Positions 42,867 to 48,041 of a DNA stretch of 64,000 bases are shown here, in pieces. A program made the position numbers and the translations under genes. The notes beneath the pieces were generated by a model that was not told where the DNA came from, did not search any database, and saw only the letters and a program-made list of their open reading frames with translations. This DNA comes from Desulfatiglandales bacterium (GTDB taxonomy: Bacteria > Desulfobacterota > DSM-4660 > Desulfatiglandales > Desulfatiglandaceae). The stretch lies in contig OY762721.1 of assembly GCA_963666345.1 (NCBI GenBank), positions 1,984,001-2,048,000 on the forward strand, read 5' to 3'. Every line of letters starts with the position of its first letter. Position 1 is the first letter of the stretch.

Positions 42867-43957
42867 AGGGGGACGCCCATGATTTTATGCTTTTCTCATT
42901 CCATAAGGGTTAAACGTTCGTCATTCGCAAGACCGGCACCTCGCTCTAGCGCACGACTTACCGCAGGCTGAACAAGGCCCAGCCTTCTCCCTACCTCTGT
43001 ACCGGACATTCCCAATTCCCTGACCGCCCAGTAGCATACAAGACTTCTTGCTCTAACCCTCTCCGGCTTTTTACTCGGCCTCAGAATTTCTTCGATATCT
43101 ATTTCCAATAATTCCGATACCCGCTCAATAACTTTATCAAAATCGTACCCCCGGCTTTTTAGCTCATACCGCCTCTCAAATTTTTCATCCTGCTCCCTCA
43201 GCACCGATTCCACAAACCCACTGTCACCAAGCATCCGCTCATCGCTCTTGAAGAGCACTCCCTGCCGACGCAGATCTTTCAACTCCTCCCAACCCCCTGA
43301 ACTTCTAATCAAACCTCCGCCTATTAAATCATTTCTCTTTCCCAGGGCAACGCCGGCCTCCACAAATCTTCTGTATTCCCTTCGAGCAAGAAATTCACGA
43401 TCACCAAACAACCGCAAGACATATTTGGTATCCTGCCACTCATTCTTATATTTTCCCAATATAAAACCGTGCCCGCAAAAACCGTATCGGTCCAGCTCAA
43501 TCATAGACGATACAATCTGTGCCCGCAGGGGATTCAGATGGATGTAACGGACAAGCTCCAAAAGATAGGAATCTTCCTGGCAAAGAATTGATTTATAACG
43601 ATTCTGAAACAGGTGCCCATGTCTTTTATATTTTTTATTAAAGGTTACAGCATATCCCGTAAGCAGTCTTCTCATTATTCCTGCAATAGGCAGATTGCCT
43701 GTTCTCAAAAGCAGATGAAAATGATTCGGCATTAACGCCCATGCAAAACAGGACGTCGCCGTAGCAGTCAGAATAGATCCCAGCCGGTCAATGAACCCTT
43801 TTCGGTCTGCCTGATCACGGAAGATCCTTCGATTTTCAATTCCTCGACATATGACATGGTGAAGAGCACCGGATGCATCTATACGGGCTTGACGGGGCAT
43901 GATTTTCCTCCTCAAAAAAAATTTTTAAGAAAAGCATAAAATCATGGGCGTCCCCCT
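42867..43957 (-). mobile_element. RAYT element bounded by perfect 30-bp inverted repeats
   Basis: 42867-42896 AGGGGGACGCCCATGATTTTATGCTTTTCT is the exact reverse complement of 43928-43957. Confidence 0.85.
42896..43900 (-). CDS. REP-associated tyrosine (Y1/HUH) transposase with C-terminal HTH
   Basis: MPRQAR...HHVICRG, LMPNHFHLL (HUH), GHLFQNRYKS, RYIHLNP; DnaA-C-like HTH tail. Confidence 0.93.
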   Translation of the reverse strand: MPRQARIDASGALHHVICRGIENRRIFRDQADRKGFIDRLGSILTATATSCFAWALMPNHFHLLLRTGNLPIAGIMRRLLTGYAVTFNKKYKRHGHLFQNRYKSILCQEDSYLLELVRYIHLNPLRAQIVSSMIELDRYGFCGHGFILGKYKNEWQDTKYVLRLFGDREFLARREYRRFVEAGVALGKRNDLIGGGLIRSSGGWEELKDLRRQGVLFKSDERMLGDSGFVESVLREQDEKFERRYELKSRGYDFDKVIERVSELLEIDIEEILRPSKKPERVRARSLVCYWAVRELGMSGTEVGRRLGLVQPAVSRALERGAGLANDERLTLME

Positions 43958-43997: not shown

Positions 43998-44741
43998 TCA
44001 GTAGTTGGAGATGGTGATGGAGCCCTTTTTGTCCTTTTTTACCTTGAGGGTCTTCTTCCTGTACCTGAAAAGCTTGGTGCTTTTTCTCGACTCCGGGCTG
44101 AGGTCAACAACATATTTTCCGGGGACCGCAAAATTGAGGTTCTGTCCGTCCACTATCTGAAAGGTAGCCACCCCTATTACCTCACCCCGCATGTTTATGA
44201 CCGGGCTTCCGCTCGAGCCCTTTGAGATGGGTGCCGAGATCTGGAAAATGTCCTCTTTTTTATGAATCGTGCGAAGGGCGGATACTATGCCCTCCGTCAC
44301 AGTCTTTTCAAGGCCCATCGGGCTTCCCAGAACCATGATTTTCTCGGCTGCAAGCGGCAATTCATCGCTTATCTCCACCCACCTGACGGCCCCTTCAGGT
44401 ATGTCAACCTTCACCTTTATGAGATCGACGGCACGGTTTTCAGCCAGGGCCGATGAGATGGGGTATGTTTTCCCATCGCTCGTCCTCACCTCCGCCTTGT
44501 AGACATTCTTGAACACGTGATAATTGGTTATGAGATGGCCCTTGCGGTTAACGAAAAATCCGGTCGCGGACCCCGCGATCTTGTCCTCGGAATTGTAATT
44601 GATGATGGTGACAACCGCGGGCTGTATCCTTTGCACAAGCTCGGGCAGACTCACCTCGGCATGGGCCGGGGCAAAAGCAGCAAGAAGCAGAAGAGCGTTA
44701 AGGAGGACAAAAGATATTCTTTTTGAAAAAGACCGTTCCAT
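43998..44741 (-). CDS. Exported trypsin-like (S1C) serine protease without PDZ
   Basis: Signal peptide; ITNYHV, VDL and ISKGSSGSP triad motifs. Confidence 0.9.
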   Translation of the reverse strand: MERSFSKRISFVLLNALLLLAAFAPAHAEVSLPELVQRIQPAVVTIINYNSEDKIAGSATGFFVNRKGHLITNYHVFKNVYKAEVRTSDGKTYPISSALAENRAVDLIKVKVDIPEGAVRWVEISDELPLAAEKIMVLGSPMGLEKTVTEGIVSALRTIHKKEDIFQISAPISKGSSGSPVINMRGEVIGVATFQIVDGQNLNFAVPGKYVVDLSPESRKSTKLFRYRKKTLKVKKDKKGSITISNY

Positions 44742-45043
44742 ACCACAATTTCCCTATTGTTTGAAAAAGATGTTAAAATCTGAGACTCCCCTTCCCATTT
44801 GCTGAGAACCCGGCAGGCTCATGCCGCCTTCCCGGAAGATTACCCATTATCCGCTTATCTCATGAATCCCCATCTTTTTCAATGACAATAGACAGGGTTC
44901 TTTGCTTCGCTCAGTCCCACTGCTTCGGAGCGGGTTCCCGGTTTCAAGATAAAATGAGAAGGCCGATCTCCCACGAGCTGTGATATGATCACGCTCAAAC
45001 CTTTAACGCAGTCAAATTGCTGCAATAAGAAAGGAGACCGGCC

Positions 45044-46096
45044 ATGAGCAAACATATCACAATTGGGATGGATTTGGGAGACCGAAATCACATTGTTGTT
45101 GTATTGGACCCTGATGGTCAGGAACTCGGGTGCTTTGAATTGATCAATAAGAAAGTGTCATTGAAACGGTTTTTTGAGCGGTACTTTGGAGCGACGGTGG
45201 CTATTGAGGCAGGCACACACTCACCTTGGATCAGTCGTTTACTGGAGCAGATGGGTTTTCAGGTATACGTGGGTAATCCACGAAAGTTACGAATGATATG
45301 GGACAGTACCGACAAAAGCGATGAAAGAGACGCCAGGATGTTGGCGATGGTATGCCGTTTGGAGCCGAAGCTTCTGTGGCCGATACGGCATCGTGGTATG
45401 AAATCTCATAGCGATCTGGAGATAAGTAAGGCACGCAATATGCTGGTTCAGACTCGCACGAAGCTGATCAATCATGTACGCTCAGTGGTCAAAGGGGTTG
45501 GAGAGAGGTTACCAAGCTGCAGCGCAGCCAGTTTTTGCAGAAGGGTAGTTGATTTTCTGCCCGAAGAACTGCTTTGTGCGTTGATGCCGTTGATTGATAC
45601 CATCAGTGATGTTACGGGCAGGATCCGGGAGATAGACAAGCGGATCGATGAGTTGTCTTTGGAACAATATCCGGAGGCTCAGACACTGCAACAGATTAAT
45701 GGAGTCGGTCCGGTGACGGCTCTAGCCTATGTGTTAACGCTGGAAGACCCTGGTCGTTTTAAAAAAAGCCGTATGGTAGGAGCGTATCTGGGTCTGACGC
45801 CGCGTCGGGACCAGTCGGGGAATACGGACAAGCAGCTTAGAATCACCAAGGCGGGCAATGCGTATTTGCGCAAGTTGTTGGTAGGCTGTGCCCATTACAT
45901 CATCGGGCCGTTTGGCCCTGACAGCAATCTGAGGCGTCACGGAATGATTATTGCGGCCCGTGGAGGCAAAAACGCCCGCAAACGGGCAGCGGTGGCTGTG
46001 GCGCGCAAACTAGCTGTATTAATGCATCGGCTGTGGGTCAGTGGGCAGGCTTATGAACCGCTGTATGTTACAAGGGAAATCAAAAAGGCGGCATAG
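45044..46096 (+). CDS. IS110-family DEDD recombinase/transposase
   Basis: GMDLG, AIEAG, KSDERDA (DEDD); GVGPVTA and YLGLTPRRDQSG (catalytic Ser); AVARKL. Confidence 0.96.
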   Translation: MSKHITIGMDLGDRNHIVVVLDPDGQELGCFELINKKVSLKRFFERYFGATVAIEAGTHSPWISRLLEQMGFQVYVGNPRKLRMIWDSTDKSDERDARMLAMVCRLEPKLLWPIRHRGMKSHSDLEISKARNMLVQTRTKLINHVRSVVKGVGERLPSCSAASFCRRVVDFLPEELLCALMPLIDTISDVTGRIREIDKRIDELSLEQYPEAQTLQQINGVGPVTALAYVLTLEDPGRFKKSRMVGAYLGLTPRRDQSGNTDKQLRITKAGNAYLRKLLVGCAHYIIGPFGPDSNLRRHGMIIAARGGKNARKRAAVAVARKLAVLMHRLWVSGQAYEPLYVTREIKKAA

Positions 46097-46169
46097 AAAC
46101 AAGGCAGTATATTGTCATAAGGCAGTCAGGGTTATGTTGACAATTTCTTTAAAGAGTCTTTGACGTCTG

Positions 46170-46330
46170 GTCCGGGTGACTGCGGCCGAACCCTTGCACC
46201 GGCCAATGTACCGTTGGCCAAAAAAGAGTGCGAGTTCAAGATAGCAGCACCCACCGACTGATTTTACCATGCACCGGGCCAAAGGTAAGGCCCTAAAAAA
46301 GAGTGCGAATGGAAGTGTGACGGTCAGGGC
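46170..46330 (+). ncRNA. Predicted bridge/seek RNA with target- and donor-binding loops
   Basis: Two parallel stem-loop units with guides AACCCTT/GTTCAAG and ATTTTACCAT/ATGGAAG that match the target and circle junction. Transcript ends are not determined. Confidence 0.82.
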
Positions 46331-46365
46331 TCGAAAGGAAAAAGGATGTCCGTGAAGCGGACCTC

Positions 46366-46371
46366 TTGACT
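46366..46371 (+). promoter_or_regulatory. -35 box of the IS circle-junction promoter
   Basis: TTGACT lies 17 bp from TAAAAT (44950-44955) once the ends are joined over one core. Confidence 0.8.
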
Positions 46372-46387
46372 TGCCTTCTCATGGAAG

Positions 46388-46580
46388 GGTCCAAGGGGTC
46401 CAGGGGCCAGCTGAACCGCTGTCGAAGAAAAAGCATGTCCTGTCTCTATGCCCTCTGTGGTCTCTGTGAGAAACAAAAGGCATTTGGACTTCAGGCCCCA
46501 CTGATACTGAAACCGCTGATAGCCCTTTGCGAAGCAAAAAATCTTTTTATCCTTAGTTATCAAGCGAAGCGGGCGGCAAA
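46388..46580 (+). repeat. Octamer repeats + module D + shortened family A element
   Basis: Homologous to 60720-60910 (CTCTGTGGT.TCTGTGAGAAA...ACTTCAGGCCCCA...CTGAAACCGCTG). Confidence 0.8.
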
Positions 46581-46746
46581 TAAAACAGGGGCACTGTTAT
46601 TTGTTATTCGTTATTGGCGGGCAAGAAAAGCGAGACCGTGCCCCTCTATGTCCTGCCTTGTCCCTCCATATCGTTCCGATATTCATAGGTATTGCTACTG
46701 AAAGCCCATAGGTTATTTTCTATAAGAAACTTTGATGATTATTTTG

Positions 46747-46774
46747 AATAGTTTCTTTTATAAAAGAAACTATT
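46747..46774. promoter_or_regulatory. Perfect 28-bp palindrome overlapping a TTGACA -35 box
   Basis: AATAGTTTCTTTTATAAAAGAAACTATT; TTGACA at 46773-46778. Confidence 0.6.
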
Positions 46775-46829
46775 GACATTTTTGCTGATTATGATAAGTT
46801 TTTGCCATAACCAAAAGAGAAGCAAAAAG

Positions 46830-48041
46830 ATGGAAACTTTACTTCATAAAAGAAACTTATATATAGACAAGGTCCGCCCCTTTATTGACAAGCCGGTGAT
46901 CAAAGTGATCACAGGCATGCGCAGGACGGGAAAAAGCTGTTTACTCAAGCTGATCATCGAAGAGATGCAAATTTCTGAAAACAGCAAGCTGTACATAAAC
47001 AAAGAGTCGCTGGATTATGATTTCATTCAGGACTACGGTGAGCTTCACCGTCATGTAAAAAAATACTTTTCAGCCGTTGAGGGGAAAAAATATCTCTTTG
47101 TCGATGAAATACAGGAAATAGAGGGATGGGAAAAGGCCGTAACTTCTCTTTTCAATGCTGGAGACTACGATATTTACATCACCGGATCCAACGCGCATCT
47201 CCTTTCGTCCGAGATCGCGACACTGATCGCGGGCCGGTATATTGAAATACCTGTCTATTCTCTGAGTTTTGAAGAATTTTTAATGTTCCGGCAAAAAAAG
47301 CAGGAAAAAGGACATGAAGAATTCTTAACATACCTTTGGGCAGGCGGCTTTCCTGCAATTCATCATTTCGATTTTAACCGGGAGGTCGTATATCAGTATA
47401 TCAATTCAATCTACGATACCATCCTCTTAAAGGACGTGATAAGAAGAAACAACGTCAGGAATGTCACCCTTCTTGAAAACATCACCCGGTACCTGTTTCA
47501 GAATATAGGTAATATTTTTACCGCCAAGAAGGTGTCGGATTATCTTAAATCCCAGAAACTGAAAATCGGCGTCGATACGGTGCAGAAGTATATTTCATAC
47601 CTTATGTCGACTTTTGCCGTATATAAGGTTCCCCGGTTTGACATAAAAGGTAAACGCCTGCTGGAACTGCATGAAAAATATTACCTTGGAGACATAGCCC
47701 TTCGAAATGCGCTTTTCGGATATCGTGAGGGAGATATCTCAGGTCTGCTCGAAAATATTGTCTTCCTTGAACTCAAGCGAAGAGGCTACGATGTCCATAT
47801 AGGAAAATTGGGAGAACGGGAGATTGACTTTATCGCGGAAAAAGAGCACCGGAAAATTTATGTTCAGGTGGCCTATCTTCTGTCATCACAGGAAACCATT
47901 GAAAGGGAGTTTTCCGCTTTGAGATCTGTCAGGGACAATTATCAGAAATATGTTATCAGCATGGACTCCGTATTCGGAAAAGACATTGAAGGCATCCACC
48001 GGATTAATCTGGTTGATTTCCTGTTAAACCCCGACATATAG
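46830..48041 (+). CDS. AAA_14 + DUF4143 ATP-binding protein
   Basis: GMRRTGKS, FVDEIQ, ITGSN, GGFP, LENIVFLEL, EIDF...YVQV nuclease-like tail. Confidence 0.9.
   Translation: METLLHKRNLYIDKVRPFIDKPVIKVITGMRRTGKSCLLKLIIEEMQISENSKLYINKESLDYDFIQDYGELHRHVKKYFSAVEGKKYLFVDEIQEIEGWEKAVTSLFNAGDYDIYITGSNAHLLSSEIATLIAGRYIEIPVYSLSFEEFLMFRQKKQEKGHEEFLTYLWAGGFPAIHHFDFNREVVYQYINSIYDTILLKDVIRRNNVRNVTLLENITRYLFQNIGNIFTAKKVSDYLKSQKLKIGVDTVQKYISYLMSTFAVYKVPRFDIKGKRLLELHEKYYLGDIALRNALFGYREGDISGLLENIVFLELKRRGYDVHIGKLGEREIDFIAEKEHRKIYVQVAYLLSSQETIEREFSALRSVRDNYQKYVISMDSVFGKDIEGIHRINLVDFLLNPDI

Follow-up and report, generated by a model that had tools for sequence, protein, structure and literature searches.

RNA-guided elements of the IS110 family were described in 2024, and thousands of them have been predicted since. 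The closest described systems are the IS1111 elements ISEc11, ISPa11, ISKpn4, and ISPst6, for which the available text of the original report gives a seekRNA with a long form of 145–170 nt (Siddiquee et al., 2024; PMC11187229). According to the same text, the non-coding region of the IS1111 elements lies downstream of the gene, the complement of the top strand is located 5′ of the match to the bottom strand, and the terminal extensions comprise 7 (or 6) bp on the left and 3 bp on the right. The left and right target guides (LTG and RTG) and the left and right donor guides (LDG and RDG) of bridge RNAs, with the core included in the pairings, were defined by Durrant et al. (2024; PMC11208160). 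In the available part of that work, 93.0% of the IS1111 elements in ISfinder have a predicted bridge RNA in their right end.

The window considered here, which is the whole analysed stretch of 64,000 nucleotides from a Desulfatiglandales bacterium, carries an IS110-family element of the IS1111 type. It is 1439 bp long with the core AG counted once (Table 1). At its boundaries, the ends are conserved among relatives and the flanks differ. The left junction reads ...TTTCAAG/ATAAAATGAG, with the start of the element at 44949, and the right junction reads ...CTCATGGAAG/GGTCC, with its end at 46387; the AG dinucleotide is found at both. A search of the 4.16-Mb genome returned one match for the element, which is thus present as a single copy. 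The subterminal inverted repeats are perfect over 10 bp and are conserved in most relatives. The terminal extensions are asymmetric: 5 nt and the core AG make 7 nt on the left, and GGA makes 3 nt on the right, with the core counted once, on the left. The non-coding DNA amounts to 95 bp before the gene vs. 291 bp after it.

Table 1. Features of the element and of its insertion site (positions are those of the window)
Feature	Position	Strand	Evidence or remark
REP-like 45-nt genomic repeat copy (left flank)	44904..44948	+	BLAST, 55 hits in genome
Left target TTTCAAG	44942..44948		last 7 nt of the repeat; ends in core AG
Core AG, left junction	44947..44948
IS1111-type insertion sequence	44949..46387	+	core AG counted once, at 46386–46387
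Left end	44949..44963	+	extension ATAAA 44949–53, then subterminal inverted repeat ATGAGAAGGC 44954–63
Non-coding DNA before gene	44949..45043
Transposase/recombinase gene, 350 aa, DEDD	45044..46096	+	Pfam, NCBIfam, and PDB matches
Non-coding DNA after gene	46097..46387
Target-binding loop unit (unit 1)	46174..46252	+	covariation with flanks; compensatory changes
Unit 1, P1 stem	46174..46183 with 46243..46252		GGGTGACTGC 46174–83; GCAGCACCC 46244–52
Unit 1, 5′ loop strand	46184..46195
Right target guide (RTG)	46185..46195		includes AACCCTT 46189–95
Unit 1, inner stem-loop	46196..46233
First copy of AAAAAAGAGTGCGA	46220..46233
Left target guide (LTG) GTTCAAG	46234..46240
Donor-binding loop unit (unit 2)	46261..46315	+	LDG equals right end; hairpin compensatory changes
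Unit 2, 5′ strand ATTTTACCAT	46261..46270
Right donor guide (RDG)	46261..46267		followed by CAT
Unit 2, inner stem GCAC/GTGC with hairpin	46271..46308
Second copy of AAAAAAGAGTGCGA	46295..46308
Left donor guide (LDG) ATGGAAG	46309..46315
Small hairpin GTCCGTGAAGCGGAC	46348..46362	+	between RNA and right end
Right end	46366..46387	+	TTGACT 46366–71; GCCTTCTCAT 46373–82; terminal GGA and core AG 46383–87
Core AG, right junction	46386..46387
Right target GGTCCAA	46388..46394	+	start of the repeat's 8-nt-unit tail

The transposase matched the Pfam families DEDD_Tnp_IS110 (PF01548, E 7e-17) and Transposase_20 (PF02371, E 3e-21) and scored 203 bits against NCBIfam NF033542, “IS110 family RNA-guided transposase,” for which the cut-off is 140. 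It also matched the PDB entries of the ISCro4 (E 6e-11) and IS621 (E 1e-10) transposases, and the D, E, D, and D columns as well as GLTPRR..SG line up in the alignment. The GL-P----S(T)G motif, a trait of the IS1111 group (PMC11187229, available text), is present as GLTPRRDQSG at residues 250–259, and G250, L251, P253, S258, and G259 are invariant in 35 aligned sequences. Named plasmid-borne relatives are distant: the best plasmid match is 31.5% identical, and matches to the IS4321 family are at about 25%. A first-pass annotation of this locus had presented the element as a candidate new programmable recombinase. This was an overstatement, since bridge RNA prediction already covered most IS1111 elements of ISfinder (93%; PMC11208160), and the NCBIfam family is already named as RNA-guided.

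Comparison with the published IS1111 seekRNA and bridge RNA demonstrated that the element matches them in every feature testable here, with no clear departure. It shares with the IS1111 seekRNA systems the downstream non-coding region, the subterminal inverted repeats, the 7/3 bp extensions (AG counted on the left), and a transposase of 350 aa with GL-P----SG. The top-strand complement likewise lies 5′ of the bottom-strand match, a two-loop RNA of about 145–160 nt fits the 145–170 nt of the long form, and a junction promoter would be formed from the two ends. The differences are that the transposase is distant, that the target here consists of the tails of a REP-like repeat, that, in this small clade, the target loop has an inner stem copied from the one in the donor loop, and that the system is known here from sequence alone.

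Positions 46174–46315 form two stem-enclosed loops; the guides of loop 1 correspond to the insertion site and those of loop 2 to the ends of the element. All strings quoted in the first-pass annotation were confirmed in the sequence, and its match counts, 9/11 for the target and 8/10 for the 5′ guide of the donor loop, hold. It had also taken unit 1 for the target loop and unit 2 for the donor loop of an IS110-family RNA. This assignment is borne out, because the guides covary with the flanks and with the element ends in relatives. Thus, the 3′ non-coding region very probably encodes a two-loop bridge RNA (“long seekRNA”) of about 145–160 nt that is co-oriented with the transposase gene. On the 5′ side of loop 1, the RTG would complement the top strand over the core AG and about 7 nt of the right flank, and on the 3′ side the 7-nt LTG, which would equal the top strand of the left flank and core, would pair with the bottom strand. 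Loop 2 would follow the same order, with a partial left-end guide (RDG) and then a 7-nt guide for the right end and core (LDG). An Rfam 15 scan of 44500–46900 at E ≤ 1 gave no match.

If the element behaves like the members that have been studied, it would be excised as a circle. In this arrangement, TTGACT of the right end, 17 nt, and TAAAAT (44950–55) would be joined and would serve as the −35 and −10 of a predicted circle-junction promoter. TTGAC at a spacing of 16–18 nt is present in 18 of the 54 loci in which a right end was found (window included), and a consensus promoter scan of the linear element (44800–46600) revealed no promoter-like site. A look-up of sequencing runs containing the element listed two, both of the DNA type and from one study, and none of RNA. 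The junction promoter would drive the transposase gene together with the downstream RNA. The RNA, once transcribed and processed, would bind the recombinase. Its loop 1 would recognise LT-AG-RT by pairing and its loop 2 the RE-AG-LE junction, and an active complex would exchange strands at AG. The small hairpin between the RNA and the right end may represent the 3′ end of the RNA or a processing hairpin. It is followed by no T run on the + strand, the consensus scan placed a terminator-like site there on the minus strand only, and hairpins were seen by eye at the corresponding place in two relatives (L004 and L005).

With respect to IS621 and ISCro4 (PMC11208160, available text; PDB 8wt6 and 9t56), the element has a homologous recombinase and an RNA of two loops with a left and a right guide each. 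In both cases, the bottom strand would be read by LTG and LDG and the top strand by RTG and RDG, and the RDG is imperfect or discontiguous. A 2-nt core lies within the pairings of IS621 and ISCro4; here it probably does so as well, although the RDG of the window reaches only the G of the core. Unlike in those systems, the RNA here lies in the right end rather than in the left one, and the order of the guides in each loop is reversed. In addition, the core is AG instead of CT, the subterminal repeats are long (10 bp), and the RTG reaches about 7 nt past the core.

Relatives of the transposase are numerous. Of 8000 candidates scored in a protein database, at least 7894 reached E ≤ 1e-60; the best 120 are 64–94% identical, and most lie on contigs of 1.4–1.6 kb, which is about the length of the element. 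A scan of a genome collection with the single protein yielded 3 loci. In a metagenome scan with an alignment of 35 sequences as the query, at least 600 stretches matched; among the matches listed, 589 encode relatives, of which the best 80 (44–78% protein identity) were kept. The analysed set comprised the window and 83 loci (L003–L005 and L007–L086), with L006 excluded as a partial match of 34% identity. A recognisable P1 strand and unit 2 anchor were present in 65 of the 84 entries; the other 19, mostly truncated contigs or more divergent tails, were left out. The regular-expression anchoring mis-registers some loci (e.g., L011, L049, L050, L058, and L071). These rows were kept and count against the hypothesis; therefore, the guide covariation counts are conservative. 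Because the relatives are phylogenetically related, the shuffle counts given below overstate independence.

The target guides follow the flanks of the loci in which they reside. Across 58 loci, the five variable positions of the LTG agreed with the left flank at all five in 33 loci and at four in 12, whereas three, two, one, and no matches occurred in 5, 5, 1, and 2 loci, respectively. The mean was 4.12 matches of five for cognate pairs vs. 1.44 for non-cognate pairs, and, with duplicate guides removed (n = 47), the observed mean was reached in 0 of 10,000 shuffles. Positions −3 to −7 match in 33–43 of the 47 loci, vs. an expected fraction of about 0.27, and positions −8 and −9 are at the background level. 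Positions −1 and −2 (AG) are nearly invariant; therefore, the core is AG, and the guide consists of 5 nt and the core. The first-pass annotation had read the core as AAG. Position −3, however, varies and covaries, and hence it belongs to the guide.

The reverse complement of the RTG, which starts with AG just as LTG and LDG end in it, contained the first 7 nt or more of “AG + right flank” without a mismatch in 23 of 50 cognate pairs vs. 32 of 2450 non-cognate ones. When both kinds of pair were given their best register, matches beyond the core averaged 6.26 for cognate and 4.32 for non-cognate pairs, and the observed mean was reached in 0 of 2000 shuffles. Right-target positions 3–9 match in 33–45 of the 50 loci, and the count falls to 16/49 at position 10. 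For the clade, this gives an RTG of the core and about 7 nt. Covariation of the guides with the flanks across homologues, which had been put forward as a check in the earlier reading, is thus present on both sides of the core. In the window itself, the RTG match beyond the core (4/7) is no better than the non-cognate mean; the case for more than chance agreement therefore rests on the covariation in relatives.

Some 50–60 metagenomic relatives display natural reprogramming. The relative L007, 78% identical, has the same left guide as the window, GTTCAAG, and a different right guide that fits its own right flank over 9 nt; relative to the window, this looks like natural reprogramming. In L003 (G057:C11; 51% identical, transposase match at 1501–2433), the transposase gene contains an in-frame TAA, and the guides still fit their own flanks perfectly (LTG 7/7, RTG 10 nt).

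The insertion site is part of a repeat. A BLAST search with the 45-nt REP-like sequence returned 55 hits in the own genome, the window copy included, and intact copies run into variable tandem units of 8 nt (GGGTCAAG, GATTCAAG, and GGTTCGAG). An uninterrupted paralogous copy with the same downstream sequence (G000, ~1969189–1969317) confirms where the element was inserted. According to the guides, the site should read GTTCAAG, core included, on the left and GGTTCGG after the core on the right, in effect one 8-nt unit followed by another. The REP-targeting elements ISPa11, ISPpu9, and ISPpu10 likewise insert at a fixed point of a short intergenic repeat that is present in many copies (PMC12288879 and bioRxiv 10.64898/2026.03.19.712850, available text of both). 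In other organisms, L008, L009, and L063 are also inserted in similar arrays of 8-nt units.

At the occupied site, the LTG matches at 6/7 and the RTG at 4/7 beyond the core, that is, at 10/14 in total. A search of the genome with the guides revealed no site with 14/14 matches, 4 with 13/14 (one of them the RNA gene's own guide segment), 55 with 12/14, many of which are in repeat tails, 333 with 11/14, and 1795 with 10/14; the occupied site, at 10, is invisible to the search itself. Hence, 391 other genomic sites outscore it at 11–13/14, and the copy occupies a near-cognate target. Tolerance of mismatches, drift of the flank or the guide, or a contribution from another feature of the repeat would account for this.

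The near-cognate position is compatible with a copy whose RNA gene is genuine by descent but which has become stranded or inactive: the element would have entered a genome that lacks a cognate site, would have inserted there a single time, at a near-cognate repeat, and would no longer move. This possibility overlaps with the two-loop bridge RNA reading, from which it differs in activity only, and we regard it as a real but clearly less probable one. It would account for the single copy and for the lack of any 14/14 site in a genome in which the own site reaches 10/14. It would also agree with the rarity of relatives in the host's taxonomic family, where they were found in 1 of 100 other genomes at E ≤ 1e-40, and with the strand that pairs upstream of P1, which reads CCGACTG in the window vs. 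CCGACGG in most close relatives. However, the open reading frame of 350 aa is intact, as are all stems and the LDG, and 58 sites at 12–13/14, many in repeat tails, would be usable if one or two mismatches are tolerated.

The only copy sits exactly at the boundary between the REP-like 45-mer and its 8-nt-unit tail. Guide complementarity alone may not set the choice of target, and a second determinant tied to the repeat could gate insertion; we consider this unlikely. Candidates for such a determinant would be DNA structure, a host factor, or a protein associated with the repeat, as in the proposal made for ISPpu10. A test of the 50-nt left flanks of 60 loci (window included) for a conserved stem-loop gave no general signal, with a median z of −0.62, 6 of the 60 loci below −2, and the window at −0.17. 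A “stem-loop gate” like the one proposed for ISPpu10 thus lacks support in these loci.

With regard to the structure of the RNA, a single-sequence fold of the window recovered both units, with z of about −2.7 to −2.9. The two strands gave z of −2.89 and −2.71; since the opposite strand folds almost equally well, the fold alone proves little, and the energy leaves the strand undecided. A consensus of 19 sequences (RNAalifold) contained 26 pairs in 5 helices, 8 of the pairs with compensatory changes. Of the consensus cells, 94.1% are paired vs. 25–40% when the 3′ partners are slid, and neither the number of double changes (44 cells vs. 11.9 in shuffles) nor the covariation score (0.285 vs. 0.119) was equalled in any of 500 shuffles. 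The compensatory changes are carried by P1, the unit 1 inner stem, and the unit 2 hairpin. G-U pairs are abundant (17/19 sequences at columns 47/91 and 10/19 at columns 17/122), and as they would be A-C mismatches on the minus strand, a + strand transcript is favoured. An outer helix around both loops was present in the window's own fold, absent from the RNAalifold consensus, and, by eye, out of register in L005.

The inner stems of the two units differ in their conservation. In unit 2, the GCAC/GTGC stem is the same in 19/19 sequences, whereas its counterpart in unit 1 covaries freely. The duplicated scaffold described in the first-pass annotation is present in the window, but a GCAC..GTGC inner stem in unit 1 (“twin scaffold”) was found in 6 of 65 loci only and is thus a quirk of the clade. 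The near identity of the two inner stem-loops in this small clade could record a loop duplication or conversion.

The donor guides were compared with the ends of the element. In 53 of 54 loci, the LDG has the same sequence as the final 7 nt of the right end, as the earlier reading had stated for ATGGAAG in the window. The identity persists through six variants (ATGGAAG, ATAGAAG, ATAAGAG, ATGAAAG, ATGGGAG, and ATGGCAG). The RDG gave a fainter signal: positions 3–5 of the left end match in 25–26 of 36 loci, vs. an expected fraction of about 0.36–0.44, and the observed mean was reached in 0 of 10,000 shuffles. The position facing left-end position 6 does not covary (12/36). The guide is weak and its register hard to anchor, with 8 of the 36 loci matching at 2/7 only, and in the window it pairs with the G of the core and is unpaired with the A. 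The RDG thus tracks the left end in part only, which resembles the discontiguous RDG-RD pairing of IS621 (PMC11208160, available text). The 3 nt before GCAC vary, with CAT in 10 of 36 loci and AAT, CGT, and TGT next; in the fold of the window, CAT pairs with the ATG of the 3′ guide. These last 3 nt of the 5′ strand look like scaffold and not guide. Of the 10-nt donor 5′ guide first proposed, only the part facing about positions 3–5 of the left end covaries with it.

Unit 1 might be functional alone, as a short seekRNA, with unit 2 a dispensable co-transcribed tail whose resemblance to the ends is a by-product. In ISEc11, a seekRNA of 70–100 nt with the target-recognition regions sufficed for transposition, and the role of the long form is left open in the available text of that report (PMC11187229). 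Nevertheless, the LDG follows the right end through its variants, the inner stem of unit 2 is invariant, and the pairing of its hairpin is kept through compensatory changes. Together, these observations point to selection on unit 2 as a donor-binding loop and make the reading with unit 1 alone improbable. That the conserved 3′ region acts as DNA, as subterminal protein-binding sites, is scarcely credible: guide complementarity is strand-symmetric, so that guide matches alone are no proof of a transcript, but compensatory base-pair changes occur in three helices, the G-U pairs would become A-C on the opposite strand and would have no purpose in duplex DNA, and, in those IS1111 members that have been studied, the transposase co-purifies with RNA (PMC11187229).

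The two-loop bridge RNA described here is a clean and fully readable natural example of the IS1111 type, in which all four guides can be assigned. Given the thousands of predictions already mentioned, it leaves the picture of the known systems unchanged. It is useful for annotation and adds a further candidate orthologue to those available for recombinase screening.

Several further features were observed in the surroundings of the element. The REP-like repeat, whose consensus is close to the left flank and which usually runs into the 8-nt units, has further copies at many places in the genome, e.g., at G000 2018871, 2020875, and 2041460, that is, within the window at about 34871, 36875, and 57460. 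Outside the window, a repeat copy at G000:C1 ~3501980–3502001 reads ...CCCGGTTTC-TCATGGAAG-GGGTCAAGG, with the last 9–12 nt of the right end of the insertion sequence exactly at the usual insertion point and the insertion sequence itself absent; this may be the deletion footprint of a former second copy or a chance match. On the minus strand of the window, 42896–43915 encodes a 339-aa protein with an IS200-like Y1 transposase domain and a DnaA C-terminal helix-turn-helix (DnaA_C match of 27.9 bits, under the Pfam cut-off of 31.5), which could be a repeat-associated (RAYT-like) enzyme of the REP-like family. Just 3′ of the element and outside it, a gene for an AAA_14 + DUF4143 ATPase is located at 46773–48041 on the + strand.
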